From Paecilomyces variotii (Eukaryota), in assembly GCA_004022145.1 (NCBI GenBank), contig RCNU01000001.1: a stretch of 64,000 bases of DNA, one strand, 5' to 3'. The notes under the pieces are model-generated. The model worked only from the letters and a program-made list of their open reading frames with translations. It was not told the DNA's origin and made no database searches. The position numbers and the translations under genes were made by a program. Positions within the stretch are counted from its first letter, which is position 1; every line of letters begins with the position of its first letter. Shown one piece after another: positions 11,101-51,200 of the stretch.

Positions 11101-11391
11101 AATTAAGCGATCAAATTGCCTGTGCGCTTGTATTGCGGCGATAGTCAGGCCGGCTGAAAGGTGGAAGCATACCCATTATTCATTCTCATACACTCGTTTC
11201 CTTTCCGTGATCTTCCAAGTGATTTGGCCACGGGTGGATTGTTACTTATAGCTTCGTCCGCTGGGGACTTACATGACTATGGAATCGTGTTGCCAACTGT
11301 AGCCTGTTATCACGAGATTACATTCCTTGAGCAAACAGAAACCTTTTTTTTATTTGTGCGATCAACCCTTGGTTATCGTCTCCTATACGAT

Positions 11392-13095
11392 ATGGCTTTA
11401 CGAAGCCCAAGCACCTCACACGGCATTGTTCGAAGCCACCCCAGCGTCGCCATTCGTCGCGGCGATATCAAGATATCGGATCCGATTCCCATACCTCGAG
11501 AAGGGCCCGATGGATTCGGGCCACAGAGCCTCAAACGCCCTTCAGTGTCTAACCTTCGACAAATTCGTCAATCCCAATCTTCCGCAACATCAAACTCCCG
11601 ACGGCAGATCCAAGGCCCGACCATGTCCTACCACAATCAACAAGACTCAATCTCGAGTTCGATATCTAGAGAGTCCAATCTACAACGACGGCGGGGGAGT
11701 GCTTTGAAGACTGTTATGCGGAAAATATTTGGGAGAAAGCGCGGGAGTGACGCCAATGGATTCGATACCCATTTTACAGAGTTACATATTGGGAGGAATG
11801 GAAGCGTATCGCCTGACCACGGGCCAGAAGGTGCTACATTTGTCACAGTCCCTGAATCTTTCCGGGCGGATCGGTCAGCATCATTAATAGCTGGGGCCGG
11901 TCATTTTCACCATGGCATTGAATCTAGCGACGGTACCCTCACGGAGAACACTGGCCGTATCGATAAGCAGCCACGTCCACGTCGCAGAGCCACCTTACCA
12001 AGTTTGATACTTTCTGACGAAGATGCCCGTGAGGTAGTCAGCACGTTTACCCGATCAGACGGCGCGGCCGGCGGTACAGAGCAACCGTCAGAAGCAAGAA
12101 GGATTCTTGATGATCTGCGGCGCAAGCAAAAACTTGAAGATAAAAGGCGCTCGCGAAGCGCGACCGCCCTTCGGGAAATGGCTAAGGCGCATGAGATGTC
12201 CCCCGTCCAGTGGATACAGGGGAATGATGAGAGGAAATCTTGGCGAACCAGTTTTCTAGGTGCGGATGTACCTCAAGTTATTACTTCGAGACCTCAGACG
12301 GGTGCATCAGCAGTCGTGGAAGAGAGAGAGATCGCGCCTTCAGAGGCCGATGAGACTGAGCCGGATACTGAAGCCGAGAGCGCCCACTACAACTTTGAGA
12401 ACCTAATAGGGTCAATGCCCAATGATGACAGCATCACGCTGGAACAAAGAGTGATTACTCTGGAGGTGAAGTTGCTCGATTTAGAATTGGCCATTGCGAA
12501 ATTACAAGGCAAAGACAACCGTCGGAAAAACTCGAAACCGGATCACAAGGGCTCTTATCCCGCCGGCCAGCTTTCCATGTCCTATCAGTCGGGCGGCAGC
12601 GATGGTTCTGGCCGAAGCTCCACGTGTGGCGTTGGCGAAGGGCGGCCGGCGAGTACCAATACACTACGTCCTAATGTCCAGGCTCGAAGTCCAATGTGGC
12701 ATGCGCCGTCCACTACTTCGCTCGCTGACATGAACGGTATCACTGTAGAGCAGTACAGTGCACTCATCACCCTCATCCGACGAGAACAAACGGCGCGCAG
12801 AACATTGGAAACTCAGGTGTCTCAGCTCCAGGACGATATACGACATCTGCAGCGTGTAGCTGTAGGCTCGTTGACTTCTGGGACTGCCTATCCCATCCCG
12901 AGCCCAGATGCACAGGAGGTGCTTCGGTTCCGGCGCGCTATGGGCCCTTCCAGGTCTACGACCCCTGCAGAGGAGAGGTCACCAGACCGCTACGACAGTG
13001 ATAGCGAGAATTCTGATCCCTACGCCGGGAGCGATCCTCATATGAAATCTAATCTGGACATTGAACAGCGACAGCCAGCGGCTGACATGATCTAG
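11392..13095 (+). CDS. Fungal hypothetical protein, Ser/Arg-rich and disordered, with two predicted coiled coils
   Basis: Long uninterrupted ORF (first ATG 11392). Heptad segments LEQRVITLEVKLLDLELAIAKL and LIRREQTARRTLETQVSQLQDDIRHL; RRRATLPSL phospho-type motif. Confidence 0.78.
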   Translation: MALRSPSTSHGIVRSHPSVAIRRGDIKISDPIPIPREGPDGFGPQSLKRPSVSNLRQIRQSQSSATSNSRRQIQGPTMSYHNQQDSISSSISRESNLQRRRGSALKTVMRKIFGRKRGSDANGFDTHFTELHIGRNGSVSPDHGPEGATFVTVPESFRADRSASLIAGAGHFHHGIESSDGTLTENTGRIDKQPRPRRRATLPSLILSDEDAREVVSTFTRSDGAAGGTEQPSEARRILDDLRRKQKLEDKRRSRSATALREMAKAHEMSPVQWIQGNDERKSWRTSFLGADVPQVITSRPQTGASAVVEEREIAPSEADETEPDTEAESAHYNFENLIGSMPNDDSITLEQRVITLEVKLLDLELAIAKLQGKDNRRKNSKPDHKGSYPAGQLSMSYQSGGSDGSGRSSTCGVGEGRPASTNTLRPNVQARSPMWHAPSTTSLADMNGITVEQYSALITLIRREQTARRTLETQVSQLQDDIRHLQRVAVGSLTSGTAYPIPSPDAQEVLRFRRAMGPSRSTTPAEERSPDRYDSDSENSDPYAGSDPHMKSNLDIEQRQPAADMI

Positions 13096-14194
13096 CCACA
13101 GTTATTCGCTGCGGCAACCATTGGATGGCCTGATGACTCTTCTTCCGTTTTGTGTCCAGTTTCCTTAGCGTGTGTAATTCATGGAGCAAGCGAGCTTTTC
13201 AGTGATTCCCCAAGGCCCTGAATTCTGTTTCCAGCGTGGTATTTCTAGGCACCTTCGCTCTTGGGCAAGCATGTCTACTGTACTATCTTCCCTCTCGACA
13301 CGATCAGCGCACAACCATGATATCTGTTTGCTCATGAACCTCCTTGCTATATACATATACTTCTTTCTTCCTACGGTCATTTACTCGAACCTTGCCCGTG
13401 GACATGTCATATTTGTTTTCCTATGTTTCTATTTCCCCCTCTGAGACGGGATTTCTAGTAGTGCAGAATTACCCGATCTGCACTGCACTCTGCATCTTTT
13501 TTTGTTACCTTCCCAAGATGTTGTGTTAAACCCAGCATCATTGCAATGGGCGGCTTTGGCTTTCTTCATCTTCTCTGTCTATATAGTAACGATCTCTCAT
13601 GTGGACCCTTTGTTGTGTTTTTCCTTTCTTTGTGCGTTGGACGCATATTCATCTCCACAAATACCCTTAGGTGATAACCCGGAGAGCGGCAGACAAATAG
13701 AGTTGTTTAATGACGCAGTTCAAAAAAAAGTTCTTGTCTGGTTTTCTAATATCCCTGGTAATTTATATTTGACCCAGAATATAAATCAAATGGTTTGTTC
13801 TATAGATCCCATTGTCTGGAAGAGGAAGCTGGCGCGCGGTTACAGCGGAAACAAGAGAAATTAATAGTATAATCCCATTATTATTTATTAACCGTTAACA
13901 GTGTGTGCTCTTGTCGATCATTAAGTTATACTTCTTCTCGAGAACTTCTAGACCGATCAACATTCTTCCATATCGCTGATGCCGAGAGGCAGCCAAACAG
14001 GACAAACATCCCTACACGCCGACAGAGGAACGACGATAACTAATTTCCTGCTCTTCCGGAGAAGATCTCCAGGAGCCACCAGTCAAGACGCGCAATCCTC
14101 TCAAATATCGAGAGCCATTGGGAATTACTACGCGCAACTAGATCTGTCGAAAAAAACTAACAATAACCAACTGGCTCCGATATTCCATTCCAAG

Positions 14195-15463
14195 ATGACA
14201 ACAACGCCTCCCTCTCCCTCCCCTCCGCGCCCTGGCTCCTCCGCTTCCTCCGCAGCGACCATGACAACGACGACTACCGGTGCGCACCACAGTCAATCGC
14301 AGACCTCGTCGCCAGTGTCAGGGCCAGTACAGAAGCCTTCCCCCCCTCCAGTGGATATTCTACCCATCCCGGCTGCGCAGACATATGCGCACGTCCACCC
14401 GGCGCTGCTGCTGGCGCTCTACGCGCTCCGGTTCCCGTCTATGATGGCAGATCCTGTGTCAGAGATGATTACCCAGGTGCCCCTGCTGGCAGTGGCACAG
14501 GTTGTATATGTGGTCACTTGTCTTCCTGCCAAGGGCACGATTGTGACTTCAACTGTGACAGCGGCTGGTGAAGGCGGAGTTGAAGGCACGGAAAGGAGAG
14601 CTGTTTCCGGAACACATGGACCTGCGGGAACAGGTGTTGTTAAGTCTGGGAAAGTGGGATATCGGCGGAAGCATCATGGACATGGAAAGGGAGATGGTAT
14701 TGGGTCGAGATTGACGGTATGTTTCTTCTTTCTATTTACCTCTGACTCGTTTGTTTTATCGGGAGCTACTCCCGCTAGATGTGCAAGAAAGCAAGACGAT
14801 GAAGATGAACAACCTATAACTTCAATTCGCGATTTACAACAAGAAAAAAAAAAAACCACTAACTCTATGAACAAATACAGGCTGCTCTCCTCTCCCTAAC
14901 CCTCACCTTCCTCCTGGGAACACCCGTCCTCGCAATTCTTCTCGTGCTGTTCGGCGGCCCATTGACCACCCATTCTCCGCACACCATCCTCTGCGCAATG
15001 CACATGTCCCTCCTCTCCTCAACGGCGCTCATCTATGTCTACGGTGTCGACGGCGCCGTCTGGAAAGAAGTCTACGCATTCGCAAGACCAGCAGATGCAG
15101 TCTGGGGCGGAGCTCTAGGTACCGGCGTAGGCGCCTGGTTGGGCGCCATCCCTATCCCATTAGATTGGTATGTTATTTATTTATTATCTTTCCCTCACTA
15201 GACTTCTCTATTTTTATTTTTTTTTTTTCATTTTATTTTATTTTATTTTATTTTATTTTTTTTTCTTTCGGGATATTCCTTTCTAACAACTCTATTTACC
15301 CAATTCTAGGGACCGCCCCTGGCAAGCCTACCCGATCACGATCCTCACCGGTGCGTATATCGGCTTCGCAGTCGGATCGCTCATCAGTCGGACACCTCTA
15401 CTCTATGGAAAGCGATTATCATTCACAGCGCCCGAGGAGGAGCAGCATGAAAAGTCGAACTGA
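14195..15463 (+). CDS. GPI11: GPI anchor biosynthesis protein PIG-F/Gpi11, 3 exons
   Basis: Spliced C-terminus contains LFGGPL...GAWLGAIPIPLDW|DRPWQAYPITILTGAYIG, the PIG-F signature; several hydrophobic helices. Confidence 0.92.
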
Positions 15464-24207: not shown

Positions 24208-25722
<1,515 letters not shown>

Positions 25723-26679: not shown

Positions 26680-27677
26680 TCAAGCATTCTCTCTCCTCTT
26701 CTTCGCATCAGCCTGAATCCACTCCTCAGCCTTAACTTTCCAGCTATCCTCCCACCGAGACAGCGGCGGTCTATCTTCGATCACATCATCAGCAGCCCAT
26801 CTCATCCTAGCCTGGTCGAGAGCCCTATCCGTTTCTCCATCAGGACAGAGGATGTAGAAGGAATTCTTTTCAAAAGCCTTGCTGAAATAATCAGCAACCT
26901 GGCTAGGGTACCAGGCACCTGCTGGTTTCTTGACCTCTTCATCTTTCGTCGGGCCAACGTTCCCCATCAGGCCGGTGTATGCCCAGCCTGGGATTAGCAG
27001 GTGTACTGATATGTGAGATGTCTCTGGTGAAGCTCGTAGGTCGTATGCGAGGTGTTCTGCGATGTGCTTCACGGTGGCTTTGGATGCGTTGTATGCAGGG
27101 TTAGCTGCGCCGGGAGGGTTGGTGATTCCCTGTTTGGATCCGGTAAGGACGATGGACTTTGGTGATTTGTTCCCCGATGAGGTCAGGATAGGAAGGAAGG
27201 CGGCAATTCCGTTCAGGTAGCCATAGACGTTGGTGTTCAGAGTCTTAGGTGACGGTGTTAATATTCGCTAGTGCAGTAGATATGAAAAGACGAAAAAAAG
27301 GGGGGGCACTGTACCTTATTCCAGTAATCAAGATCTTCCCAAGCCTTTAATCTCCCTCCTTCCTGCTGACCAGCTGCTTTGAAACTCTTCCCAGCATTCA
27401 AAATCAACAGATCCACTTCTCCAAATGTCCCGGTCACCTTCTTCACGAGGTCCGCCCAAGCAGCCTTATCGGTCACATCCATCGCATATATCTCCGTCTT
27501 CAGACTCGAATTCAAACCCACCAAGACATCCTTGGCTTTGTTCAAGCTGGTAGTATCAAGATCGACTAGAGCAAGGTTCAGACCCTTCTCCCGGAGAAGT
27601 TTAGCGATTGCGAAACCAACGCCAGAGGCGGCGCCGGTGATGACAGCGGTACTTCCTTGACGTAGTGCAGCAGGCAT
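26680..27677 (-). CDS. Short-chain dehydrogenase/reductase, 2 exons (intron 27244-27314)
   Basis: TGAASGVG NAD(P)-binding motif, LILNAG, TGSKQG, catalytic YNASK. Confidence 0.92.
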
Positions 27678-35017: not shown

Positions 35018-35103
35018 TTTGATGAACAGCTAGCTCGATGGCTTGATCGTCGAAACGAAGGAATTGACAGCTGTCAGCTGCCTGGTTTTGAGGAATGAGC
35101 GAC

Positions 35104-35150
35104 TGAGCTGAGCTGAGCTGATCGGAGTGAGAAACGAAACGAAACGAAAC
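35104..35150. repeat. Pentanucleotide microsatellites (CTGAG)n and (GAAAC)n upstream of the small secreted protein gene
   Basis: ctgagctgagctgagctga and gaaacgaaacgaaacgaaac visible directly. Confidence 0.8.
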
Positions 35151-37297
35151 TACGGATCCAAAGCTCCCTTTATATGCATTTCATCCAGAGAGGCACGAGA
35201 AATTGGGTGGGACATGGTTACATTGTGGTAAGCAGCCTTCCAGTAACGGAGATCTGCCCGAAGGGAACTACGCATGATATTGAGATCGGCACATACTAGA
35301 TCACCAATTCTTTGCTGCAGTTATTGGGCTGTATGGCCGGCACCCGATAGCCTAATTCAAGTCTGAGAGATGGCCGAAGTATATTCCTTCAGGAACCAAG
35401 CATGTTGCATGTGAAAGTCTACCTACAACAGACCATGATCAGTTCTTTTTTACCCGATGCATAATAGTCATTCATAAGATCTGGGATCTTCAAACAATCA
35501 GACCATGATTCTTTCAAGAAATAAGCATATACAATCGCAGAAGGTGTTATCTGTACGGTTATCAATCTCGGAATTTACCGGCACCTATCCATTCTTCGCA
35601 ACCTCAATTGCACTTCTCGGGTGTAGATATAGCGAGGAGAAAAGCACGGAATTCCTGCAGCCCATGAGACCTTTGGATATCGAGCTGCGTTTCCTCCGTT
35701 TTTCGGACGCAATCCTGCGGCGCAGTATACTTGATCCGGTCAAAGAGAACGTTCCATAGCGTGATATCTGCACTATGACAGGAAATGCATAGCGATTGCC
35801 TCCCTTTGCCCTTCGACTGAGCCGGAAATGACCTCCGCCCGTGGAGAGATGAATGGTCCAAAGGGACGGCAGTGTGCGGACGATGTTGTTAAGAACCCTG
35901 TCAACCGTGAACGGGCAGCTTTCTGGTTCGTCGGTACCTGTTCGATATCCCCACTGATCAACAGCACTGATTATCAGATAAAAATCGGCCCCATCCCATC
36001 CATGACGGAGAAAAAGGGTCAATAATTTCTCTCGTCCCGGAATCTTATCTGATCCAGTCCAGCCCCAGCAAGGAAGTTCCCCCGTCCAAGACGGTGGGCT
36101 CTAGTGGGATGATCGTCTCTGTGAAAGACAAAAGGCTCTATTTTTCAGCCTGGGTCATTAACCGGGACGGGATTCCTGCATCGGAGCTGCGCTTAAACAG
36201 GTACAGTTCCAAGCTGTTCCTATGCGCGTGTCAACCATGAGCCGGTGGATCGTGACGGCAACTAAGAACGACAAGTCATACCATCATGAAATAACCTTCC
36301 AAAGACAAGGTAGAGTTGAATATCTTTCGTCCGTAAGCCAGGTGAATACGTGTCGGCTATCTATGTTAGCTGATTGAACTACATACTTGCATGGATCTAC
36401 GAGAAGTTCCCTGATGCCAAAAAAACCCAAGATACACAATCAAGGCCAATTCAGATACTGGAATAAGCAATGCCATTTAACCTCCACATACTCTACTTAC
36501 ATACAGCGGAATCACTTCGTTCTTAAGGTCATTGCATGTCTTAAGCGAGGACACTCCACCACCCCATATCTGCACAAGGTCCTTCATCACTAGAGCAGAG
36601 CAGCTCATTATTCGCAAAGATGCAGGTAAAATAAGCGATCGCGCCCACAATTTGCCAAGACACGGTGCAATATGGGATCCACGCCTTCCCTTGGCTTCCG
36701 CGAACGTGCTGCGAACAAACCTCATGCTAACGGTTGATCAAGCCACGGCACGGGGAAGACCGAGCGGATCGTCACTATTTTCAACCATAATAAGACGCCA
36801 TCCGACATCGAGATCCACCGCTATTCATTTACTGTCATCCGCTTCGAGAAACTACTCCGAACCCGTTCTACACGTAGAGTATAGAGACGGTTCACAATAA
36901 TTACATACCTGAGGGAACTTTATCGACCCGAGCCGGAGAGACGCAGTGTGCACTGTTTCCGAGTACCTACACGGGAGACTCCGATTCCGGCTTTGGACCG
37001 AATATTCAGCTTTCTATATAGCGATCATTTTTATGTAATTTTGTTAATTGGCGAATCTCTCTACCTAACGTTGCAGACGAGGGGAGTGGCAGCAGACCCA
37101 ACGAAAAAAGATAGTACACTGCCCGAAAGTGATACAGTTCGCATCATCTCCTGCCATTATTAAACCCTCGAGACTCATCTCAATCCAACCGACATATCCT
37201 AGATCCAAAGAAATCATCCTCTTTTTCACCTTATCCCAAAAGGCATCATCATATATACATTGGTGCGTAAGAGTCGTTGCATGCGATATTCAGTGCT

Positions 37298-39304
37298 CTA
37301 CTCTTGCACTATCTTTCTCTGCCGGAACTCGACCACCTGTTCCGGCATACAAGTAAACCTATCTCTCTTGATGTGGGTGGCACCGTCACCAGTGTTCAGC
37401 TCGAAGTGCTGCATAACAGCCACCAAGAACTGTTTTATGATCACGTTGGCGACGTTTTTGCCCAGGCACTTTCGCGGGCCCATTCCGTATCCCAGCATAC
37501 TATAACGGGCCTCTCGGCTAGTGATTTTATCCCATCGCTCTGGACGGAAGGAATAACCATCCTCTCCCCAGATGGGAGACGTTTTGTTGAGTCGCTGGGT
37601 ATCGATGATCACGGTAGTTCCGGCTGGAATGAGAAAGCCATCTATGCGTTTCTCTACGGCGGTTGTCTCGGGGAGAGAGAACCCTGAGGCGTCGATTATC
37701 AGCAGCGATTAGAATGGTACAGACTCCCAAGGTATACTCACAGACTGGCGGGTTATTACGGAGAATCTCGAGGTAAGTCTTGTGAAGGAACGTGTCTTCT
37801 CTTCTGACAAACTCTGCGATCTTCGTCTCGTCGCTTTCGATGGCTTTCACCTCCTCGTATAGACGCTGCTGGGAGTTCGGTGTCCGCCCTATATTGATCA
37901 ATGCGTACGCAAATTGAGCGGATGTGACATCAATGTTGGTGAAAAGGATCTCGTCCAGCGATTGTAGGAACTGACAACTAGTCAGTCGATGTCGGGAGAC
38001 AAATCCATCGGTTTTGGCTTACCATATCTGTGGTCATCTCACCGCGCTCAACGGCTTGGAACATCCGTTCTGCACGACAAGGCGTACCCGACTTTATATG
38101 AAATCAGCTGATAAGGCCCGGTGGTTGGAATCCGATGTTCACGCCTACCTTCCTTGCCTCCCCGATCACATCCAAGTTGAATTCTTTCCAACCATCCTCA
38201 TACGCGTGCAGTGCTCGGTTGGCAGCTGTAGGCAGGTAACGGTAAAACCGCATGTTCTCCCAGGTTCCGAAGAAGGTATGAGCAGTCACTTTCTCATGGA
38301 TCTTGTTCAAGTGCCACAATCTCTCAAAGACCTACAATAGAAGGAGCATCAGCTACCGTGCGAACTTCTGATATTCTCCCCATCCCAGGAGTGAATTTCT
38401 TACCTCGTCAGTAAGCATGTCACCGTACAGAGACATGGAAATCATACGGAAGGGCAGTTTTCTGCATGCCGCAACACTGTCTGCGAGGAAGGTACTCGGA
38501 GAAGTAGGTGTGGCTGCGGAGTCGCCGGGCAGCTTTGTTGCCCAGTCCGTAAGGGCCTTCTGGAACTCAAGGATCATCGAAGCTGCTTCTCCAGCCGAAA
38601 AATGAGCTTCGAGATGTCTGCGAGTTTTGTGCCATCTCTCTCCGTTCTGGACGCCAACACACTGGCCTAGACTCCTATGGATCAAATGCGCGTCAGCTCC
38701 CTCCCGATCAGAGTATGAGAGGAAAGGACACGGTTTCTATACCTTAGGAAATACTGGCCCATATTGGCATCCTGTTTCTTCTCATGGTCTAGGGGGGCGA
38801 AAATCAGCACCCCGTATCTCCAGGCTGCACTCAGAACTTACATCTAGCATCCTTTTCGAAGAAGTCGCGAACCTGATTAGGACTGAACAACACCAGTTCG
38901 ATCTTCGATTTGTTCTTGACAAGATACGGGTCTGGTCCGCTCTTTTGTTCTCCCTCTTGAGAGAGCTCCTTCCTGTGGGTCGAGAATAAGCTCACGATCC
39001 AGAGTGTCGGTACAACGCGGTCGGGATATGCTTACCCATGAGTGAAACGGAGATACCTAGTATCTTTGTCAAGGATCTTCATCTTTCTGCCATCGATATG
39101 CTTGTAGTGGAACGCGTTTGCCCTTTTTCTTGAATGCAAAACTGCAATGGCCCCAAGAATCAGGAGCAGCAGAGTGAACCGGATCTTCAAAATTGAGAAG
39201 ATCAAAGTGTACACGGGCGTCTGACTTGACAGTTCATCTTCATTTACTGTCGAATCTAGATAAGACACCACAGATACTCTGTCACTTGTTGATGTCAAAT
39301 TCAT
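37298..39304 (-). CDS. Cytochrome P450, GliC-like (diketopiperazine-modifying type), multi-exon
   Basis: N-terminal TM anchor, LGQCVGVQNGERW, atypical I-helix FLQSLDEILFTNIDVTS, EILR (ExxR), FRPERW, heme motif GYGMGPRKCLG. P450 identity is secure; the GliC-type assignment rests on recalled motifs. Confidence 0.88.
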
Positions 39305-40076
39305 TTTGGATTTTCTCGTCCAATGTCTGTTTAGAGCAAATGAAATTGGGTCTGCGAGGATGAACAGGAACGATCCCAGTCGAGGTTATAGAAAGCTGTA
39401 TAATTCATGTAAGACAAGGATCTACTGATACTGACCGTCAATATTAAGCACTGAATGCAGGGGATACCCTGCAGTTCATCAGAGAAGTGATCACTATGCT
39501 CACTGTTATTCGTAAGCAAGTATGACTCCGCAATGCTGAAGATGGCCACTCCCAAGTATCCACGACAAAACATCACGTTGAGATATCGAGAAGTTTCCGT
39601 GACCCGGCTCTTGTGTACCTAAAACCCTGTCGTGAGGCACACATACTAGGTAGATCCATTTAGCAGGACACATCTCCTCGGGGACCATCAAGGTTTGGTT
39701 GTGGCCTCAAAATGTGCTAGAATGGAACCCGCCATACTCTCCTAGTAATACGGTACCAATACAAGAGAGACGGGCTGTAGGCCTCCACTCCGCTATCTCA
39801 GGGCTGTCAACTTTAACAGAGAAACTGAAGAAGGAATCGACGTTGTGAAGCAGGGTGGCTGCATCGTGCAGTTGCCCGATTTCGGAGGATGTTAGAATAA
39901 GGTAAACATCAATGGTGATCATTTTTCTTTTTTCGTCCGTGCAATCTATGAGCATGACACACGGCTGAGAATCTTCATGATGGAGAAAGATTGATTAGGG
40001 CATGTTGACAGGACTCTCAGCCCCAAGTCCCTCTTAGCACGATTTAGTTCCACCCACCGGCTATTTTTTCAGTCTT

Positions 40077-40097
40077 GCCAAGGTAGGCTCCGCCAAG
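40077..40097. promoter_or_regulatory. Two closely spaced PacC-type GCCAAG sites in the divergent P450/O-methyltransferase promoter
   Basis: GCCAAG at 40077-40082 and 40092-40097 match the PacC consensus GCCARG; short motif, could be chance. Confidence 0.35.
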
Positions 40098-40406
40098 GAG
40101 GGGAGGCTCTCTACATGAGACTTATTGCGTCCGGAGATCGCCAGTTGGAGAATCCCGATCGGTCTTGAGATCACCAGAATGTAAAATGTGTGCGGGTTCT
40201 GATCCGCTTCAATGGGTCGTACTGTTGGTCACAGTTTGACCGTGTGGTGATTTGAGTTGTAGCCGTACGAATGCTCAAGGGACCACGATATTGAGTAGCA
40301 GATTTCTAGATAAACCAACGGAGTCGTCCTTTTGAGGGAGTTGAAGAGAAAAGCTTTCTTCCAGTCTTAAAATTCCTCCGTTGGTTGTTGATATCATTTC
40401 CGCATA

Positions 40407-42005
40407 ATGGCAACCGAGAAGAATCCAGTTCAAGAGCTCGAGCAGCTTCGAGACCTCATCAATTCTTCTATAGATATTATCAAGAAGAACGTTACTGAGA
40501 ATGGAGATCCTCCTCTGACATTGAAGACCAACGAACCCCATCCGATCTACAGCAGGAATGACCCCCATTTGGCACAAGCTCTGAGGACTGTTTCGTCCTC
40601 GGCGCAGATGCTCAGGGCTCTCCTTGATCCGAACACCTTCCTCAACGATATCATATACGGAGTAAGATACTTGGCTTTCGTAGAATAGTGGTCATAGTCG
40701 AGACTAATATCTTTGATTCAGTATCATGATGAGACCGCTCTTCTGGTCGCCTGTCAAGCGGATGTCCCCAACTTGATCGGCGACACCGACCGTCATATAG
40801 ACGAAATTGCTGCTCAGGCGGGTTTGAATGCTGACAAACTCGGCCGTTTCTTGAGGAACCTGTGCAACTCATACATCTTCGAAGAGACAGCACCGAACAG
40901 GTTTGCTAACAATGCACTCTCTGCGAGGTTCAAACCTGAAGGAAAGAGAGCAATTGTCGGGCATTGGTATGTCTGCCAGCGGGGATATAACCACAGGGGC
41001 GATACTGATAATGCTATTCCAGCGCCGACGAAGCTCGCGTTTCCTCATGCAAGTCATGGGAAGCACTTACCCTTCCTGAGTACAAGGACTCCACGGAAGC
41101 AAACAAGGCTCCTTTCAACATTGCCTACAATACGTCGCTCACATACTTCCAGTATGTTGCGACTGAAAGACAGGATATAGGAATAAGGGCGAAGAAGGCC
41201 ATGGCCGGGAAAGGATTCAATCTTGGTCAATACCTCAGCTGTAAGTCGACCTAGCGTCTCTTTACCGAAAAAGGAGACAATTGACGACGAGATTGCAGTG
41301 TACCCCTGGGGATCTCAGAAAGGCGCCAAAATCGTAGATGTCGGGGGTGGAATTGGGGCCGCGACGTTCCCCATCCTTCAAGCCAACCCGGACCTACGAC
41401 TGACGGTGCAGGATATTCCGGATACTGGACCTGAGTTCCAAAAGGTAACTGCATGACTCCCGTGGACCTGGTATCCTTCCCTGCATGAGGACCAAAATAT
41501 TAACTTCGACTCGTTACTTTAGAACCTTGAACAAAACTTCCCTGACATCTTGAAGTCGGGTCGTGCGGAGTTCATGGAACTGGACTTCTTCAAGTCCGCC
41601 CCTGTTAAGGGTGCGGATATCTACTTCCTGCGCCATGTCATTCACGACTGGCCGGACGCAGAAGCCATCAAGATCCTTAGTGGCTGTACTTCCTCGATGT
41701 CTGCACAGAGCAAGCTGCTAATTTGTGAGCACGTTGTCTGTCCCACATATCGGTCCGCAGATGACAGCACCACAGCCGAGAAAGGATCTAACAGCGAGCC
41801 ACACTTCGTAGCACCTGAGCCGTTGTTGGCAAACTGGGGAGACGCACCCACCAGCAGGCTAGATCTGCAGGTATACACATGTTTGAACGCCAAGCAGCGG
41901 ACGAAGCTTGAATATCAGGCTCTAGTCCAGCAGGCAGGCCTGAAACTGGTCAAAGTGTGGCGCAACTTGGGAGATGAGACCATCCTTGAATGTCTGCTTC
42001 GCTGA
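40407..42005 (+). CDS. SAM-dependent O-methyltransferase (Methyltransf_2, fungal secondary-metabolite type), ~5 exons
   Basis: N-terminal dimerisation region (RFLRNLCNSYIFEETAPNRFANN), IVDVGGGIG SAM motif, LTVQD, DFFKSAPVKGADIYFLRHVIHDWPD, NAKQRT. Confidence 0.93.
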
Positions 42006-44476
42006 GGGTATTCTCAGTTAGAATGTCTAACGCACGTAAGGTGCCGTTCTAGTAGATTCAAGATATGCCGGATGCTTCTTTAGGCAGCCTCATCCGTCCC
42101 ATACTTAGGGAATAGTAGTTCATCAGAAACTTCCCTTTTTTTTCCCTTTTCTTCTTTTAGCAGTAATTGTATATTGAATCGTCACCAAATAGAATGATTG
42201 GACACCATACCATATGCAGAACCCCCTCAAAGCACCAAGTAGGTCTCCCAGGATGAGAAATTTTGTGTGATTAGCCGTATCGTCCGGACAGATTCCCACA
42301 AGGACGGAAAGTGGCCGGCATGGATCGAACCTAAGAGATGTCCTTGCAAAGGACTCCAGGCTGACAGGACGTGTCGCTGGCCACCTCGATCGGGGGCCAT
42401 GCTGATCATCCCTATTTACCGTGAATAATGATTTTTCGAGCACGCTGAGCGTGAAGTGGTTCGAACATGTGGCGTGCCGATCAGGCGGGAACAGATGTCT
42501 CGGCCGTGGAGAATTGGATCCTCTGGGGAGCTTGGGGTGGGACACGCGGGCCGAGTATAATAGCTAGTCGAGAAATTAGTTCATAATTCTTCAAGTACTA
42601 TATACTCTTCGACAGTCAATATCCCTGCCTCTGTCGGAAATGGGCCGGACCCTGCCGATAGTTTGTGCTCCTCGGTAAAACAAACCATCTTTTCCTTCGG
42701 ACTTTTAGACAATTTCATTGACTTCCTAAATGAATAACTATCCAGAAAACAAACTCCGTGTTCTAATAGGGGACTTACCTCAAGGCTGACACTAGGTTAA
42801 GGGCTATAGCATATTTGCAGATGCCCGACGACTGTATGATAGTTCCATGGTAGTCCATTATTTCTTGGCCCGATAGTTCATTTACCGCCGTAGACGGATT
42901 CCATCAGTCATTCCATCATGGCGTCACTCTGTGGGAATTCGAGTGAATATCCCCATTGAACTGGTAGATCAGTCTGCCTAGCTCTCTTCTCTTTAGAGTC
43001 CAAAGCATCTTCGGATGGATAAGTTTCCCAGGATGTCCCTGTCGACATAAGCGTCAGAAGTGGATCCCGCTTAGTCCCACTCTAACGGCGATGCTGCCGT
43101 TATAGTTATCTGATAATCGCATAACTTTGATCAGAGATCATCAGGCCCCTTCAAGCGAAGTTGAAGACCATGTTCTGCTCCACTAATGGGAGCAGATTCC
43201 AAGGAACGTACTGGAACCATGCGGCTATTATTGATGTCTCTTATTCCGAGGTTTTCCTGATCAATTGTGCTCGTGATACTCAACCTTCAGGAACAACACT
43301 TGGCATCCGCACAAGCCCGAGAGTGGAGTTATCATACAACCTTGAGCTAAAGCCGGACGATTGCCGTGAGCTGTAATGAAGTCCTGGGCAACGCTTTTGC
43401 GTTGATATCAGACGTTGGAGTAGTTCAAGCGGAGCGATTCAGACACCGATCTCCCGGCTATCTGTGCTGCTTCTTCAAAACCCGTATGGGGGATCCCTTT
43501 CACAAGGCCAAGGCCCTCAAGTTAGTCCGTCTGTGTGGATACGTGATTCCTCAATGAAGTGACTCCATCGGCAGGGTTTCGTAATTTACGTACACCACTG
43601 TCATGAATAAGCCACTCCACTAATGAAAAAGAAAGCACACAGGGCTGGAAAGGATTATTGGTGGCGTAGTCCCCGAAATATCAAACGATATTGCTCAATA
43701 ATTCGTTCTTTTGTAGTTCTGAATCCCGAGTTCTTGGCCCATTGTCTGGCCGTACAGGTCCTGAAGACTTCGTCCCGCTGCTTGGACTTCCACTCGACAG
43801 CGTTCCGCAGAGCTTGCGAGACAACTTAACACCAAGGCGAAAGGAGGATGATTTAGCCCCTGTGGATAGTACCGTTCAGCTTGCACAGAAAATATGTCAA
43901 TTGGAAACTCGAATTGAGTGTCGTTGAAACCTTTCTTTCTTCGTTACCGGGCTGCGATCAGTCCTCCATTGGCGGTTCTCGAGTATTCTGTCGCTTCGGG
44001 AAACTCCTCTCCAGCTAACAGATAACAACAATTCTCATGAGAAATTATACTTCCTTGGTGAAAGCAAGCTTCTGCGCGCTTCTTGTAACACCTCGATTGG
44101 CCCGTGACATGTCAAGTTACGTACTCGAACCGGTGTGAGTGGAGATTATACCAAATCAGTTACCTGAGTGACAATCGACATAGATTACTTTCAGGGCTCC
44201 ACTTACAGTCAGATTCAACCCGTCCCTTCGGGGACTTCTGTTCGTTAGGGGCCAGGCAGTCCTTTGCTCCGCAAAGTTCGGGTCAAAGAGATCTAGGTTT
44301 CCCGGGGCTCTGGATATTCCACGAGGTGATTGCTCAGGCAAGGAGGTATTTAGTAGGGAAATACTTACAGAATCAGGGTCTGAGCGGATATCAAAGACCC
44401 TATTTTCCATGATATCCTCTTCTATGTTTCCTTTGCGAGTCTTTCTGCTTCGTCCGTTAGCATTGATATCATTCAA

Positions 44477-46503
44477 ATGGCCGACTTCCTCTTTCCCGCG
44501 TTCGAGCAGCGGATTCGCTCTCACAGGAGGCTCCTCTACCCTGCATTCTTAACAGACTTGGTTCGAGGCGCTTCAGACGCTATTGAAGCACTCGAGTTGT
44601 TCCGCGGCCTCCTCCTGGGGACCAACAATGGTCCACAGTCAGTTGGTTTCATGGCCTTCGATGCACACGGAGGAGATACAGCATGTCATCTTCGAGCAGG
44701 GATGTTGCTTGAAGTCTTCTCAGTGCACCGCCAACTGATACTCGACCAAACTGTCGGGACACCAAGGATCCCCTTGTGGATCAACAAGTATATCCAATCG
44801 TTGGAAGAAACACGTGAGCGAGCAAAGAAACTCTGCGCGGCACTCACATATGACCGAGTTCATCCAACGAGGCTCGGTTTAGGGGCCAAAGAGGACACAT
44901 CTGAACATATACTCGGCGTCTTGGGATGGACAGAGCCTTTCTTCCCGCGAAACCGCGAGGGTTTATACGGCAGCATCGAGCCTTCCGGGGAGAGCCAGAA
45001 AGGCGTCCCTTTTATCACTGTCTTGAATAACGGGAACTTAACCCCCGCCTCTCTCGAGAGCCCCGAGAGCCCCGAGAACCCCGACCTCGAAGACCCTGGG
45101 CTTCTTAGCAATCAGCTCTCGTGCTTGAATCTGGCAGGACTCCCTCTTGAGCTCGATCACACAAAGCAAAATTGGCTCCATGGTGCTGGAAGACACGGTC
45201 CCCTCCATTCCGCCTATGAGTGGAACATTGGGGTTCCCCCTTCAAGTCCACCAAGGAGCCCCTCGTCCGGAGCCACTCCTTCCATTGATGACTTCGAAAG
45301 TGATGTCTCCCCTCTTCAAACGCGATGGGACCTCCTCGATGGTAGGCTTGTGGTTCGATTCATTGTTTTTTCCTATATCCTCTCAAAGTACAAGACATTC
45401 TTTTGTTCCAGGGACGTCGTCGGCGCTCGTCTATATCCGGAAGGTGCAGTCAGCCGCGGATATGAGTTGATGGAGCAGTCCTGGAATTTCAAAAACGTGG
45501 AATATAAGAAAGCAAAGCTTGAGAGAATGGCGCTGGAGCTCAGAGCTCTTCAGATGTGGCTATCCGATTTCAGCTGCGCCTGGCTGCAGTCCCTTTCGGT
45601 GAGATACTCTCCATCAAGTAACATGGCAAGGTGATCCATTCTGGTGTACTGTCTTGAAGCGAACATATCTAACGGTCCACTCAGACTGCTGCTCGGAACA
45701 GTCCAAAAGTCTGCCAAAGGGTTGACAGCGGCGGCTTGCTATCCCGGTTATATCCTTCTCCGCAACGAACTTGCTCGAGAGGAACAGACCTTCGTCATGA
45801 TTGACCGGCACTTCTGTCCACATGGTATGATAGTCTGTTTGCTATATAGCACCAAATGTTTTCAGACTGCTGACGAGTTACAGGAATCCATTTCAATGTG
45901 TTCCTAGCAGATCTCCACCATACAGGTAACAAGGAAGATCAAGAGACTCGCTGCGACACGCGGCTCGAGCCTGTCGATTGGAAGGTCAGACAAGTGACGC
46001 TTGACGACCTTTATAGTTTGCCGAATCAGTCAAGGCCCCATCCTGTCGTGATGGGTAATAGCATCCAGGGTGCGTCCGCAGATTACATCGCACGCTTATC
46101 ATCTCACTACACTTCAGATCCTGTGCGAACAAGCCTTCATGAAGACTCCTCGTGCGAAGAGAATGCGGCACATATAGAAGAATTCCTTGCTGCGGATCAT
46201 GATAGGCTATCTCTGTCCTTCTTTGCTGCCCACAAAAGCTATGCCTTCCCTCTCGCAAATGCACAGGATGAAGTAGAATTTGTGGGTTCAAGAATGGATG
46301 AAGAATGGCCCGGCCTTCGCGAGCGATGGCTCGCGTCTCGAGAGGAGATTTCCACATTAGGGGGCGGCGATCAAGGCCTCCATCTCTTCGGTTGGCAGCA
46401 TATGTTCGTCGATACCAAAGAACGCTTGGCTCATAAGTTGGATGTTTGGATCAAGAATGGGGAACTGATGCCGTTGTCTGCAGATGTCACGGCGAGGAAG
46501 TAA
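44477..46503 (+). CDS. Unknown ~637+ aa protein; candidate fungal tRNA-dependent cyclodipeptide synthase (RCDPS/AnkA-like). Exons 44477-45630, 45685-45824, 45884-46503; the 5' end may extend upstream
   Basis: Two canonical introns (45631-45684, 45825-45883) fuse three ORFs in frame. Motifs GGDTACHLRA, FSYILSKYK, LSDFSCAWLQ, QKSAKG, LDDLYS, FAAHKSY. The gene model is well supported; the function is inference. Confidence 0.6.
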
Positions 46504-46869
46504 TGTATTGGTTGGATCTCTGTGATGTTAATGATATCCCACGTTTCATGTCCATCGGTTAGTCGATAGTAAATAATGGAGAAACTCAAATCGATATCCC
46601 GGTCTGGCTTATTAACCTTGTCGCGAGGTGCCACGACTCCAAGATCGGACAGTTTCTGGTAATCTGGGATACACCATTGCTACTGGAGGTATCGCAGGAT
46701 AGGTAAGCTGCAGCATTTTTACTCCTGCCTTCCTGCATCCCTTCATCCCTTATATCCCGTGCCTCGCAAAGCTGAATTTCCAGGAAGATGGCGATATAAG
46801 CCGTTGCTGTGGGGTGAAGTCATTCAAAGTCATTATTGATGCGCTTGGGGGCGCGGGGTTTCCCGTATT

Positions 46870-47320
46870 CGAGATAAGCTTGCTCCCTCGACCAGTTAGC
46901 CGTTCTTTTGGAAGTGGAAGCCCATTTCACCTTCGGTCTTTTGGTTATCTGGCTCTGGTTCCTTATCTGTTAAGATCTGCCTTGATAATCGCGATACAGA
47001 AGACCGACAGAGCTCAAAAGCATGGTTTAGGAACATCAAAGGTCCCTCCCGGAACTGTCTCTTCGGGCTCTCTGTTTATTGTATGTAACACCAGCTCTGA
47101 CATGCGGCGAGAGAAAGGTCATTATCCCACAACAGTCTGCAGAAGGTGATCATCCCCAGAATTTCCTTACAGCGACGAGGATTCCCCGCGCCAATCATTC
47201 TTGCCGTTCTTGGTACTGGAATGCGGAGTTTCTGTCGGGATTCCAGATAATAATGTAACCCTATCGCCTTGTTATCTGGGCTTGGGCCTCTCTTGCTTCG
47301 CTCCTTGGCATGATAACAGC
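46870..47320. promoter_or_regulatory. Cluster of at least 8 GATAA/TTATC sites (AreA-type nitrogen regulation) upstream of the MFS permease
   Basis: GATAA/TTATC at ~46873, 46945, 46963, 46984, 47122, 47246, 47272 and 47312; fits a nitrogen-regulated DAL5/TNA1-type permease. Confidence 0.55.
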
Positions 47321-47355
47321 AGTCTAATCAGACTGTTATATAGCCAAGCATTGAG

Positions 47356-49028
47356 ATGTTCTCCCATCGTCGTACAGCTGGCGCTGGAAGATTCCGTCCA
47401 GAATATCAACGAGATCATTCAGTCACGGCCATGGTCTCCAGTCAAGAAGATCATTCAGTGGCAGATGATGTCACAAAGGATGCGGTCTCTAAGACAAGCT
47501 ACCATGACATTGACAAGATCGATAGCGGAGTCGGCCAAGCAGGCATCATCCACGATGTCGCGCGTGTGATTGACCACCAGGCTGAGCGTTCTCTTTGCCG
47601 GAAGTTTGACATCAGACTATTACCGATCATCGCTACCATGTATCTATTCAATGCGCTTGATAAAGGGAATCTTAGTAATGCTCAAACTGATGGGCTCAGT
47701 GACGGTAAGCTTCAAAGACACACTGCGCTTCTGATCACAACCATTTGGTTCTGACTGGGATATCGATAGATCTAAACTTCAAGCCTAATCAATATAACCT
47801 TATCCTGTCGATATTCTTTGTTCCTTATGTTGTCTTTGCGCCACCGATAGCAATGCTAGGAAAGCACTTTGGTGCTAACCGCACGCTTCCCATACTCATG
47901 TTTTCTTTCGGATCATTCACAATGTTGGGAGCAGCGACCAGGAATTTTGGTGGGATCTTCACGCTCCGATGGTTTCTGGGCATGTCAGAGGCGGCCTTTT
48001 TCCCGCTTGTGATTTACTACTTGACCACTTTCTATCGCCGTGGGGAACTTGCTCGACGCCTCGCCATCTTCTATGCGGCTTCGAACATCGCCAATGCATT
48101 CTCGGGTCTCTTGGCCTTCGGTGTATTTCAAATCAGGGATACGAGAATTGAGGGCTGGCGCTACCTTTTTATCATTGAAGGAGCATCTTCGGTCCTCTTC
48201 TCCATTTTCGCCTTTTGGTATCTTCCACGCAGCGCTGCTGAGGCGAAATTCCTCAACGAAGATGAGAAGAGGTTGGCATATCATCGCATTCAGGTTGATT
48301 CGAGCTCTGTTGTCAACGAGAAGTTCAACTTGCGCGAAGCTCTCGTCATTTTCAAACATCCGACTACCTATGCATTTCTGGCGATCGAGATCTGTTTGGG
48401 TGTTCCTCTGCAAGGAGTGTCATTGTTTATGCCTCAAATCGTGCAGCGGCTGGGATATCCGACCGTTAAGACTAACCTTTACACCGTGGCACCCAACATC
48501 ACAGGCGCTGTCATGCTTCTTGTCCTAGCCTTTGCTTCGGATGCCACCCGAATCCGGTCCGTCTTCATAGTCCTTGGGTTCCTGTTCACTTTTGCAGGTT
48601 TTATGATCTATGCCTCAATCAACGACGTGCAAGCTCAGATCAGACTTGCGTATTATGCTACTTTCATGATGACATGGGGCACTTCCGCGCCATCGGTACT
48701 CTTGAGTACTTGGTACAACAATAACGTCGCCCACGAGGGCAGACGGGTCTTACTGACGAGTATCGGTGTGCCTCTTGCCAATCTGATGGGGTTGGTAAGT
48801 AGCAACGTCTTCAGATCCAAGGATAAACCAAAATACATGCCAGCACTCATCACGATTGCTGCGTTTGGGGCAACCGGTGCATTATTGGCTGCGTTACTCG
48901 GGATCTATATGTGGCTAGATAACAAGAGAAGAGATCGACAGGCTGGAGTGAAGATTGATGCTCGAGATGTACCGACAGAGAGGCTGAGAAACGGCCCCGA
49001 TAGTCCAGAATTCCGCTGGTTTCTCTAA
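47356..49028 (+). CDS. MFS transporter, anion:cation symporter family (allantoate/nicotinate permease, DAL5/TNA1-like), 2 exons
   Basis: RKFDIRLLP...LDKGNLSNA, RWFLGMSEAAFFP, FYRRGELARR, GWRYLFIIEG; about 12 TM segments; C-terminal FRWFL. Confidence 0.93.
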
Positions 49029-49538
49029 TTTTTACTGGGACTAGGCGGCCTGAAGCACTGGGGATGTCTCTTCATTATTGATTTTTGTCCGCCCTTCATG
49101 CTTGGTATTTATTATCACGCTTTGAAAAATCGTACATGGTTTCTTTGGGATTTGGGTCGTTACCTATTCTCTGGATAGGATAGGGATCGTAGCTCTCAAT
49201 CCTGACTTTATGTTGCACTAGGAACTCCCAAGGTTTTATCAGTTGGAAGAGGATTTAAATTCTGCTGCACGTCAATGGGCGTGGTGTGATACGATCATAC
49301 GATACTCAAGCAGTGACCAATAGGGCAGGATGTGCCTCGGCTTCCCCTCTTACAGTAGTTACTTGACTAGCAGGTAGTTAGTTAACTAATCACTTCAAAC
49401 TACTGATTACAAAACATGTCTTACATGGTTCCCCGCCAGCATGAAATGAACGACTCTACTTCTTAATCCCCTCCCTTTACTTGTTCTCTTCAAGCTACCT
49501 GGATCTGTCATAGGTATTATTCCTTCAAAATCTTCACA

Positions 49539-50636
49539 ATGGTTCCCACAGTCCGCGCGCTCTTGTACAAAAAGATCCCCACCGGATTCCCTGTAGTAGG
49601 AGAGCATGTGGCCGTGGAAGATGTTCCTTTCGATATCTCGGCACCACCACCACCAGACGGTATCGTCGTCCAGGTTCTCTACTCGAGTCTTGATCCGTAC
49701 ATGCGCGGACGTATGCGACCTCCAGAAGTCGAGTCATATTTCCCCGCGTTCAAGACCGGAGAGCCTATCACAACCCGTTCTCTAGTCAAGGTGCTGCAAT
49801 CGAGCAATAGCCAGTTCAAAGAGGGTGATTTGGTTACTGGATTCTTCCCTATTCAGGAATATGCAAATGCTCCTGGCGATTCGTTCCAGGCCAGAACCAT
49901 CAAGCTTCTCAGCAACCCGTTCGGCATCGAGGATCTCCGGGTTTTCCTGGGTGCGCTGGGTTCATCTGGCTTAACGGCCTACTCGTCCCTGTATGAGATT
50001 GGAAAACCGAAGAAGGGAGAAACCATCTTTGTCTCTTCCGCTAGCGGCGCCGTTGGACAGATCGTGGGACAGCTTGCCAAGCACGAAGGTCTGAAGGTTA
50101 TCGGCAGCGTAGGCTCCGACGACAAGCTGAACTATATCCTCAATGACCTGGGCTTCGATGGCGGGTTCAACTATAAGAAGGAGAAGCCACTGGATGCTTT
50201 GAAGCGCCTGGCTCCCGAAGGTATCGATATCTACTATGATAACGTCGGAGGCGAGCAGCTGGAAGCGGCCCTTGATGCATTGAACAGCTTTGGCCGCATC
50301 GTAACATGCGGCATGATATCGCAATATAACCTACCACCTGAGAAACAGTATCCGCTCAAGAATCTCATCCACATCTTCCGAAAAAGACTCGAGATGCGAG
50401 GGTTTATCGTTTCGGATGCAAACATGGGTCCTAGGTGGGCAGAAGAGCATCAGATGAAACTAGGGCAGTGGATAAAGGACGGTACTTTCAAGGTTCGCAT
50501 CGATGAAACAGCAGGAATCGACCACGGGGCCGAGGCGTTGGTTGGTATTTTCGAAGGCAAGAATTTCGGGAAGGCTATTCTACGGATCCAGAAGGTCGGT
50601 TTATCTCCTGTTCCTTCTAGTAATGGGGCGTACTGA
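49539..50636 (+). CDS. NADP-dependent alkenal/enone reductase (PTGR/LTB4DH-like MDR); exact 3' end uncertain (possible terminal intron)
   Basis: SLDPYMRGRM, GLTAY, SASGAVGQIVGQLAK, YYDNVGG, CGMISQYN, GKNFGKA. Confidence 0.92.
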   Translation: MVPTVRALLYKKIPTGFPVVGEHVAVEDVPFDISAPPPPDGIVVQVLYSSLDPYMRGRMRPPEVESYFPAFKTGEPITTRSLVKVLQSSNSQFKEGDLVTGFFPIQEYANAPGDSFQARTIKLLSNPFGIEDLRVFLGALGSSGLTAYSSLYEIGKPKKGETIFVSSASGAVGQIVGQLAKHEGLKVIGSVGSDDKLNYILNDLGFDGGFNYKKEKPLDALKRLAPEGIDIYYDNVGGEQLEAALDALNSFGRIVTCGMISQYNLPPEKQYPLKNLIHIFRKRLEMRGFIVSDANMGPRWAEEHQMKLGQWIKDGTFKVRIDETAGIDHGAEALVGIFEGKNFGKAILRIQKVGLSPVPSSNGAY

Positions 50637-51200
50637 CTGGATAGTGATATAGTAAACGCCTAATGAGCCTGGTCAGGCGCCAAGTAGACCAGTACTCATA
50701 TGGTCTATGGTGACAATGATGACCGTAACATGGCTAGCATTTGGGTTTGTTCTTACGAACGCCGGACACGTTTTCTGTCGGCAAGTGCAGTCCCATGCGG
50801 GCTTCAAGGTATAATGATAAGTTATGGATTATGTCTCATGAAATCACTTTGGTTCAATACCTATGTGTCGCCGAAAACTTGGTAATCCTGTCTATAAAGT
50901 GCATTCTATAGCATATTTACCTGTTACAGCGGAGCAACATATATATATATATCCATGCCCTACCCCCAGTAGAATTAAAGCAGAAAACTTCTTCGCAACA
51001 ACGAGGCGCACATGCGCCCTTATTTCGTGCTAGGAGGGATAGAACTATCGGATATATAATATAGTCATCTGATGTACCGAACATCTATACCTTAAAGTGT
51101 ATAGGTGAAAATACCAGTAATCTCAAATGGATGCATTTTTACGATCTTGTGCAGACAATGGGGTCTTATATCATAGGTTCGGATCCACAATCACACAACA

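Follow-up and report, generated by a model that had tools for sequence, protein, structure and literature searches.

Three adjacent genes in a 64,000-nucleotide stretch of Paecilomyces variotii (Byssochlamys spectabilis) contig RCNU01000001.1 (NCBI GenBank assembly GCA_004022145.1), here called the window, encode a cytochrome P450, an O-methyltransferase (OMT) and a large protein without a recognised domain (gene 3). As judged from sequence comparison, this trio is well supported as a real, conserved gene cluster without a canonical core enzyme. It is probably a small, undescribed natural-product pathway, whose product is possibly a modified cyclic dipeptide. Our best reading, to which we assign a probability of about 0.5, is a diketopiperazine pathway resembling that of Pul1 and Pul2 in pulcherrimin yeasts and extended by an O-methyltransferase. 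Gene 3 most likely encodes the scaffold-forming enzyme, a cytosolic Cys/His protein.

The trio and its conservation in other fungi

The P450 gene is located on the minus strand at 37298..39304 (8 exons, 527 amino acids (aa); Pfam p450 and an N-terminal membrane anchor). The OMT gene lies on the plus strand at 40407..42005 and encodes a COMT-type class I enzyme (5 exons, 448 aa; Pfam Dimerisation and Methyltransf_2). Gene 3, the candidate scaffold-forming enzyme from a domain-less pan-fungal family, follows on the plus strand at 44477..46503 (3 exons, 637 aa). Pfam matches and spliced gene models revealed all three genes, each intact, at the positions given for them in an earlier note made from the DNA alone. 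That note had also proposed a divergent promoter for the P450 and the OMT, and this is confirmed, because the start codons of the two gene models (39304 and 40407) face apart across 1,102 bp (39305..40406). The gene-poor setting that it described is seen in the flanks 35029-37298 and 42005-44477, neither of which holds a long open reading frame (ORF). The Pfam scan comprised 26 of the 42 window ORFs of at least 150 aa, including all eight of more than 400 aa, and three shorter pieces. These 29 ORF pieces contained no nonribosomal peptide synthetase (NRPS), polyketide synthase or terpene synthase, and no glutathione S-transferase (GST) or other domain of the gliotoxin sulfur genes, in agreement with the note.

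The locus tags of the P450 and gene 3 homologues differ by two in P. variotii DTO271G3 (8122/8124), in Penicillium cosmopolitanum (N7509_001512/001514) and in Penicillium waksmanii (N7481_011870/011868); the difference is three in P. variotii DTO027B9 (1496/1493). In Penicillium pancosmium both homologues are found on one contig of 289,889 bp. A scan of metagenome contigs yielded 19 loci with gene 3 relatives, nine of them at least 8 kb long; P450 matches were present in two of the 19 (L003 and L005) and an OMT match in one (L005). Locus L003 combines gene 3 with an adjacent P450 (32-43% identity). Locus L005 carries the whole trio in the order gene 3 (33-38% identity to the window gene 3), OMT (44-57% identity) and P450 (27-31% identity), the last two head-to-head, with one match ending at 8862 and the other beginning at 10056. 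The P450 thus adjoins gene 3 or is one gene away from it in the window, in two Penicillium species, in L003 and in L005. A strict scan of the 19 loci for the P450 heme motif detected L005 alone. A relaxed heme pattern was rejected for its spurious matches, most of which lay antisense to the family gene.

The L005 trio lies between two housekeeping genes, one for an eEF1A-like GTPase and the other for the splicing factor Yju2, and thus forms a self-contained island. Gene 3 is inverted in L005 relative to the window, which implies that the adjacency has outlived a rearrangement. A quick maximum likelihood tree, with Shimodaira-Hasegawa-like approximate likelihood ratio (SH-aLRT) support only and with L006-L019 and most fragmentary representatives left out, placed the Paecilomyces and Penicillium sequences in one clade (SH-aLRT 99), L003 with the Chaetomiaceae Chaetomium and Dichotomopilus (99) and L005 with a Phaeosphaeriaceae protein (89, within a group at 99). 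This association across three Pezizomycotina classes, each time with different flanks, argues for a selected functional unit. The earlier view of a conserved unit without a canonical core enzyme is therefore upheld by the neighbouring P450 and gene 3 in Penicillium and L003 and by the whole trio in L005. Clustering nevertheless appears to be a trait of one branch of the gene 3 family and not of the whole family.

The P450 and O-methyltransferase genes

The P450 model joins eight minus-strand exons (39304-39036, 38972-38842, 38788-38743, 38674-38404, 38331-38149, 38091-38023, 37970-37742 and 37683-37298), and its translation is identical to P. variotii protein P0040 at 516 of 527 positions. The Pfam family p450 was detected in two of the three minus-strand ORF pieces scanned (E 8.9e-21 and 2.7e-5), and the heme loop YGMGPRKCLG is located at 37489 on the minus strand. 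Four of the seven introns are supported by CT..AC joints, among the 14 joints listed, in RNA contigs of runs X3 and X5; both runs carry a P. variotii organism label, and such contigs cannot rank expression. The protein is predicted to be a membrane-anchored class II enzyme.

Individual comparisons showed 61% identity of the window P450 with the Penicillium cosmopolitanum P450 whose locus tag is two away from that of the gene 3 homologue, and 51% over 482 aa with P0045 from Coccidioides; Thermoascus and Aspergillus versicolor (P0042) also have close relatives. Among solved P450s, the closest are unrelated enzymes from animals and plants (E 1e-16 or weaker). The earlier note had called this P450 GliC-type. 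The sole support for that term is the label of P0211, a Coccidioides protein in the 90% cluster of P0045 that its source named GliC, and the assignment is not established. A literature search for CYP5251 and GliC returned nothing relevant.

For the OMT, five exons bounded by GT-AG introns (plus strand, 40407-40661, 40722-40966, 41023-41240, 41299-41444 and 41523-42005) give an open frame of 448 aa. Three of the four plus-strand ORF pieces had a Pfam match: PF08100 (Dimerisation) with E 8e-6 and PF00891 (Methyltransf_2) with E 6.6e-12 and 9.7e-5. The spliced protein contains the S-adenosylmethionine motif VDVGGGIG. The closest solved structure to its last exon is the GedA O-methyltransferase (E 8e-23); GedA is a fungal secondary-metabolite phenol O-methyltransferase.

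Gene 3: family, conserved residues and predicted fold

Gene 3 is assembled from three plus-strand exons (44477-45630, 45685-45824 and 45884-46503). The 637-aa product has the same length and nearly the same sequence as the P. variotii NCBI hypothetical protein P0001, with exon 1 being 100% identical. Its first description as a large spliced protein without a standard domain was correct, as no Pfam family scored above the cut-off in gene 3 or P0001. The same was true of P0015, P0019 and ten distant members, and none of the 39 homologue hits of gene 3 carries a precomputed Pfam domain. The N- and C-terminal fragments of gene 3 had no Pfam match at E 10, and Pfam scans with limits of E 1 and 10 listed no family of bacterial cyclodipeptide synthases (CDPS) for gene 3 or its relatives. 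A PDB sequence profile search with gene 3 revealed two designed coiled coils only (E 2 or weaker), and a look-up of P0001 and the basidiomycete relative P0111 in the ESM Atlas gave no usable neighbour.

A profile search among 1.84 billion representatives detected 254 members of the gene 3 family at E <=0.001 and 96 at E <=1e-30. The 20 representatives whose names were looked up belong to ascomycetes, agaricomycetes, chytrids, Basidiobolus and Calcarisporiella and, outside the fungi, to a rotifer and a beetle; 17 are called hypothetical, uncharacterized or unnamed, two are nameless and one (P0111) is labelled PUL1. The members were compared in two alignments, one of 18 sequences (A1) and one of 26 diverse members (A2), with residues numbered as in P0018. 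A word-based homologue search with A2 gave two proteins, neither with an informative name. The animal records are those of the beetle Brassicogethes aeneus (P0121, 6458 aa, with 26 matched stretches of the family's C-terminal part) and the rotifer Adineta steineri (P0139, 434 aa); they could result from horizontal transfer or contamination, or from a tandem array that was fused into a single gene model.

Among the 26 members, D62 and H64 are conserved in all sequences, as are C423 and H514, whereas C70 is found in 25, and R73 and E518 in 24. The near-invariant polar residues in this set comprise D62, H64, D67, C70, R73, K209, S266, R314, C332, H337, S389, H415, C423, H449, H514 and E518 (P0018 numbering). 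Counterparts in the window protein are D62, H64, D67, C70, R73, C429, H434, C522, H548, H604 and D608.

AlphaFold models of P0001 and P0018 are confident outside linkers (predicted template modelling score (pTM) 0.78 and 0.88, respectively). In both, C70 opens a helix, and H604, which corresponds to H514 of P0018, lies in a strand. A Cys/His pair of this type would suit covalent aminoacyl-thioester chemistry, if these residues are catalytic as we infer, and a second Cys/His set may bind a metal. Foldseek searches of the PDB with either model gave nothing at E <=0.001, and the rows of low probability consisted largely of actin-like ATPases, NTPDases and transposases. Structural comparison with VIA-align, for which the noise guide is a Z under 8, placed helical-bundle matches to the N-lobe at the top (Z 5.4-5.9); these were regarded as a common arrangement and set aside. 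Among the listed VIA-align matches, only OTU deubiquitinases covered the helix of C70 together with the strand of H604, and they did so in both models, with Z 2.7-5.0 and thus below the noise guide. For the first model they were 4ddg_A (Z 4.8), 4dhz_A (Z 4.6), 8cmr_C (Z 3.9), 3von_A (Z 3.7) and 6w9r_D (Z 3.2); for the second, 4ddg_A (Z 5.0, 162 residues aligned), 4dhz_A (Z 4.7), 3von_A (Z 4.2) and 6w9r_A (Z 2.7). The Pfam OTU families did not match gene 3 even at E 10. The GDTxCxLRA motif of gene 3 resembles what we take to be the OTU Cys box.

The possible link to Pul1 and the proposed pathway

The one family member with a functional label is P0111 from the basidiomycete Psilocybe cubensis, which NCBI names "putative cyclodipeptide synthase PUL1". 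Aligned with the ascomycete profile of the gene 3 family, P0111 reached an hhalign probability of 99.9% (E 4.2e-31, 460 columns), and BLASTP with gene 3 gave E 2e-18; by these scores it is a full-length homologue of gene 3. Kinship between gene 3 and the yeast Pul1 is accordingly a lead that comes from one source label on a basidiomycete protein, and P0111 makes plausible a role of gene 3 as a cyclodipeptide synthase that is independent of tRNA or NRPSs. PUL1 and the P450 gene PUL2 of Metschnikowia pulcherrima are reported to suffice for pulcherrimin formation in Saccharomyces cerevisiae (PMC10786192). Pul1 is described as having no homology to bacterial CDPS and an unknown mechanism (PMC11610984, PMC12715866 and 10.1101/2025.03.18.643849), and reviews up to late 2025 still describe its route to cyclo(Leu-Leu) as unclear, including the question whether free or tRNA-bound leucine is used.

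In the proposed pathway, gene 3 would join two amino acids into a 2,5-diketopiperazine. The P450, anchored in the endoplasmic reticulum, would then oxidise this ring, as Pul2, CypX or GliC do with cyclodipeptides, and the COMT-type methyltransferase would methylate the new hydroxyl or enol oxygen. The protein encoded by a neighbouring major facilitator superfamily (MFS) gene may export the product. The kinship with yeast Pul1, the diketopiperazine nature of the product, the order of the steps and the choice of amino acids are all inferred.

The closest parallel is the yeast PUL cluster, in which the putative cyclodileucine synthase PUL1, the P450 PUL2 (CYP5251), the transporter PUL3 and the regulator PUL4 lead to pulcherriminic acid. 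Like the window, it places a domain-less protein of unknown mechanism beside a P450, with a transporter gene nearby. Pul1 diverges fast, with 31% identity between Kluyveromyces lactis and M. pulcherrima (PMC6851878), a trait that it shares with gene 3 (33-38% between window and L005). In contrast to the PUL cluster, the window trio includes an OMT as an integral conserved member, no Pul4-type regulator was seen, and the host is a filamentous fungus of the Eurotiales. The Bacillus pair YvmC-CypX follows the same logic as proposed here, a cyclodipeptide synthase followed by a diketopiperazine-oxidising P450; however, gene 3 has no Pfam CDPS match and its predicted fold no confident PDB match. 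Gliotoxin-type clusters (P450 GliC, methyltransferases GliM and GliN) likewise combine a P450 with an O-methyltransferase, but the window ORFs scanned contained no NRPS, GST, dipeptidase, C-S lyase or thioredoxin reductase.

Several observations weigh against a Pul1-like pathway. The link to Pul1 is one source label on one basidiomycete protein, and no budding-yeast member is present among the 20 representatives with names looked up. No solved fold was matched with confidence, the best Foldseek E (0.18-0.81) and the best VIA-align Z (5.4-5.9) both belonging to helical matches. The L005 P450 is only 27-31% identical to that of the window, and is thus a putative orthologue at most. The 14 remoter loci L006-L019, with 22-32% identity, had neither a P450 nor an OMT match, and the neighbours scanned in L006, L010, L015 and L017 were F-box, kinase, Myb, multicopper oxidase and GT20 genes; it follows that the gene 3 family also occurs outside clusters and that its basic function may be a different one. 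At the RNA level, none of the 14 joints listed belongs to a gene 3 or OMT intron, although splicing of the P450 and MFS genes was seen, and the OMT region is covered by an apparent antisense transcript.

Alternative explanations

The main rival to the Pul1-like pathway accepts the cluster as real and denies gene 3 the role of scaffold synthase. Gene 3 would instead be a papain/OTU-like cysteine hydrolase or acyl/aminoacyl transferase, either of them acting in the tailoring, release or detoxification of a compound, or else a non-catalytic partner, and the P450 and OMT would act, by hydroxylation and methylation, on a substrate made elsewhere, for example an aromatic amino-acid derivative. OTU/otubain proteases share with gene 3 a Cys at a helix start, an Asp three residues before it and a His in a C-terminal strand, and the recurring weak, sub-threshold structural matches were to OTUB1, SnOTU and a Wolbachia OTU. 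That these deubiquitinases recur across the C70 helix and H604 strand in two independent models, the presumed likeness of GDTxCxLRA to the OTU Cys box, the lack of biosynthetic neighbours at distant family members and the action of GedA, the closest solved OMT, on a phenol all speak for this explanation. Against this, every OTU score lies under the noise guide of Z 8, Pfam OTU is missing at E 10, and gene 3 is three times larger than OTU proteases, with a long helical N-lobe and extra conserved Cys and His residues. Moreover, a hydrolase fold is compatible with peptide-bond formation through a thioester, and L005 holds no other scaffold enzyme between its housekeeping flanks. We regard this alternative as unlikely, yet as the one with the most weight after the Pul1-like pathway. 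The view that no functional unit exists, either because the genes merely inherited their proximity or because gene 3 has an unrelated housekeeping role and lies by chance next to a P450/OMT pair, seems improbable to us. The RNA contigs give no evidence of co-expression, the gene 3 family is widespread outside clusters, and Thermoascus, A. versicolor and Coccidioides have close P450s while no gene 3 relative from them is among the 39 hits. However, the adjacency recurs in three Pezizomycotina classes with different flanks and with gene 3 inverted, which is hard to explain without selection for linkage.

In the reading that follows from the RCDPS-like label of the earlier note, gene 3 would be an arginine-containing cyclodipeptide synthase (RCDPS) of the AnkA/AvaA family, with a hydroxylated, O-methylated Arg-containing cyclodipeptide as product. 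Like the RCDPSs of the ank (Aspergillus thermomutatus) and ava (A. versicolor) clusters, which pair a hypothetical protein with tailoring enzymes and lack a core enzyme (PMC11610942), gene 3 is a domain-less fungal hypothetical protein beside tailoring enzymes, and Cys and Tyr residues are conserved in the ascomycete subset of its family. For AvaA, a commentary (PMC11610942) on the work of Yee et al. names C193, a DDxxE motif, Y392 and Y515 as essential. Among gene 3 family members, DDxxE is found in two of 18 (A1) and three of 26 (A2) sequences, each time in a different column, and by inspection the columns conserved in at least 85% of rows do not reproduce the C193/Y392/Y515 spacing. No hit is named RCDPS, AnkA or AvaA; among the named hits A. 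thermomutatus is missing and A. versicolor is represented only by the P450 relative P0042, so that neither species contributes a gene 3 relative. The ank cluster further carries pyridoxal phosphate-dependent (PLP), flavin monooxygenase (FMO), ATP-grasp and NRPS-independent siderophore (NIS) enzymes (PMC11610942), which are absent at the window trio. Because DDxxE and the C/Y/Y spacing are not conserved and no RCDPS-named hit was found, gene 3 was not filed as an RCDPS, and judged by the published motif and the hit names this assignment is not supported; we consider it very improbable. Still less credible is a pathway similar to those of peptides that are made on the ribosome and modified after translation (RiPPs), in which gene 3, acting like a cysteine protease, would cut a small precursor encoded in the 2.4-kb gap, and the P450 and the OMT would modify it. 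The gap is indeed transcribed and spliced, and gene 3 has weak protease-like features, but the gap transcript runs on the minus strand, with a longest ORF of 62 aa and no repeats noticed. Only about 2.2 kb separate gene 3 and the OMT in L005, and the window ORFs scanned showed neither a UstYa-type enzyme nor another of the known RiPP enzymes of fungi.

Returning to the Pul1-like pathway, a bolder version of it can be formulated tentatively, and we hold it to be rather doubtful as a whole. Gene 3 and the yeast Pul1 would form one ancient pan-fungal Cys/His family with a remote OTU/papain-like core that makes cyclodipeptides via an enzyme-bound thioester, a route separate from NRPSs, bacterial-type CDPSs and RCDPSs. 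The Pezizomycotina branch would have recruited the P450 and the OMT, and the resulting cluster, invisible to core-enzyme-based mining, would yield a diketopiperazine or pyrazinone that is both oxidised and O-methylated and that possibly chelates metal.

The literature search revealed no description of the trio or of Pul1 relatives in filamentous fungi, and the two FDAH motifs of the family did not occur in the literature searched. The trio shows that a common food-spoilage mould harbours conserved clusters lacking a standard core enzyme, and finders that depend on core enzymes probably miss it. If gene 3 is of the Pul1 family, that family would extend far beyond a few pulcherrimin yeasts, to 254 representatives from ascomycetes, basidiomycetes, chytrids and Basidiobolus. 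It would also offer a short list of conserved residues for mutation (D62, H64, C70, R73, C429, H434, C522, H548 and H604) and a compact pathway of three genes suitable for reconstitution in a host.

Transcripts and neighbouring genes

RNA contigs of runs X3 and X5 define a spliced transcript at 40605..44130 on the minus strand, from about 44130 to 40605, which crosses the whole OMT gene and reaches the promoter of gene 3. Its CT..AC joints are 41714>41848, 42562>42779 (with alternatives) and 43495>43593, and the OMT introns are retained in these contigs; the strand was deduced from the intron ends, as the RNA contigs come without direct strand information. With a longest ORF of 62 aa after joining, the transcript is probably non-coding, and it may regulate the cluster. 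At 41476-41536, where OMT intron 4 meets exon 5, the X3 and X5 contigs skip 61 bases between two copies of an 8-base direct repeat. The skip has the non-canonical ends CT..AA and could stem from a deletion in the strain, from a template-switch artefact or from non-canonical splicing. Two food-fermentation metatranscriptomes (X2 and X4) yielded long unspliced contigs over 36500-50800, with base differences of a few per cent and small indels, such as 8 bases inserted behind 44250. A related Paecilomyces strain was thus present in these samples, probably as DNA, and because their contigs are unspliced and DNA-like, X2 and X4 are uninformative on expression.

Downstream of gene 3, an MFS transporter gene is located at 47356..49028 on the plus strand, with a start at 47356 or 47431 (Pfam MFS_1, E 5.1e-32), and its intron 47704-47768 is confirmed by a GT..AG joint in X3 and X5. 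The encoded protein is a possible exporter of the cluster product; no MFS counterpart was found in the 19 metagenome loci with gene 3 relatives. Dehydrogenase genes near the trio match ADH_N_2/ADH_zinc_N (49467-50636, plus strand), ADH_zinc_N (24791-25486) and adh_short (26680-27267). None of the 19 metagenome loci, L005 included, had a dehydrogenase match, and since L005 lacks a counterpart the window dehydrogenases are probably outside the cluster. In L005, a FAD_binding_4 oxidoreductase gene lies at 13190-14872 on the minus strand, two genes past the trio and after the Yju2 gene. Elsewhere in the window, the region 11158-13095 (plus strand) contains an open frame of 645 aa that matches no Pfam family.

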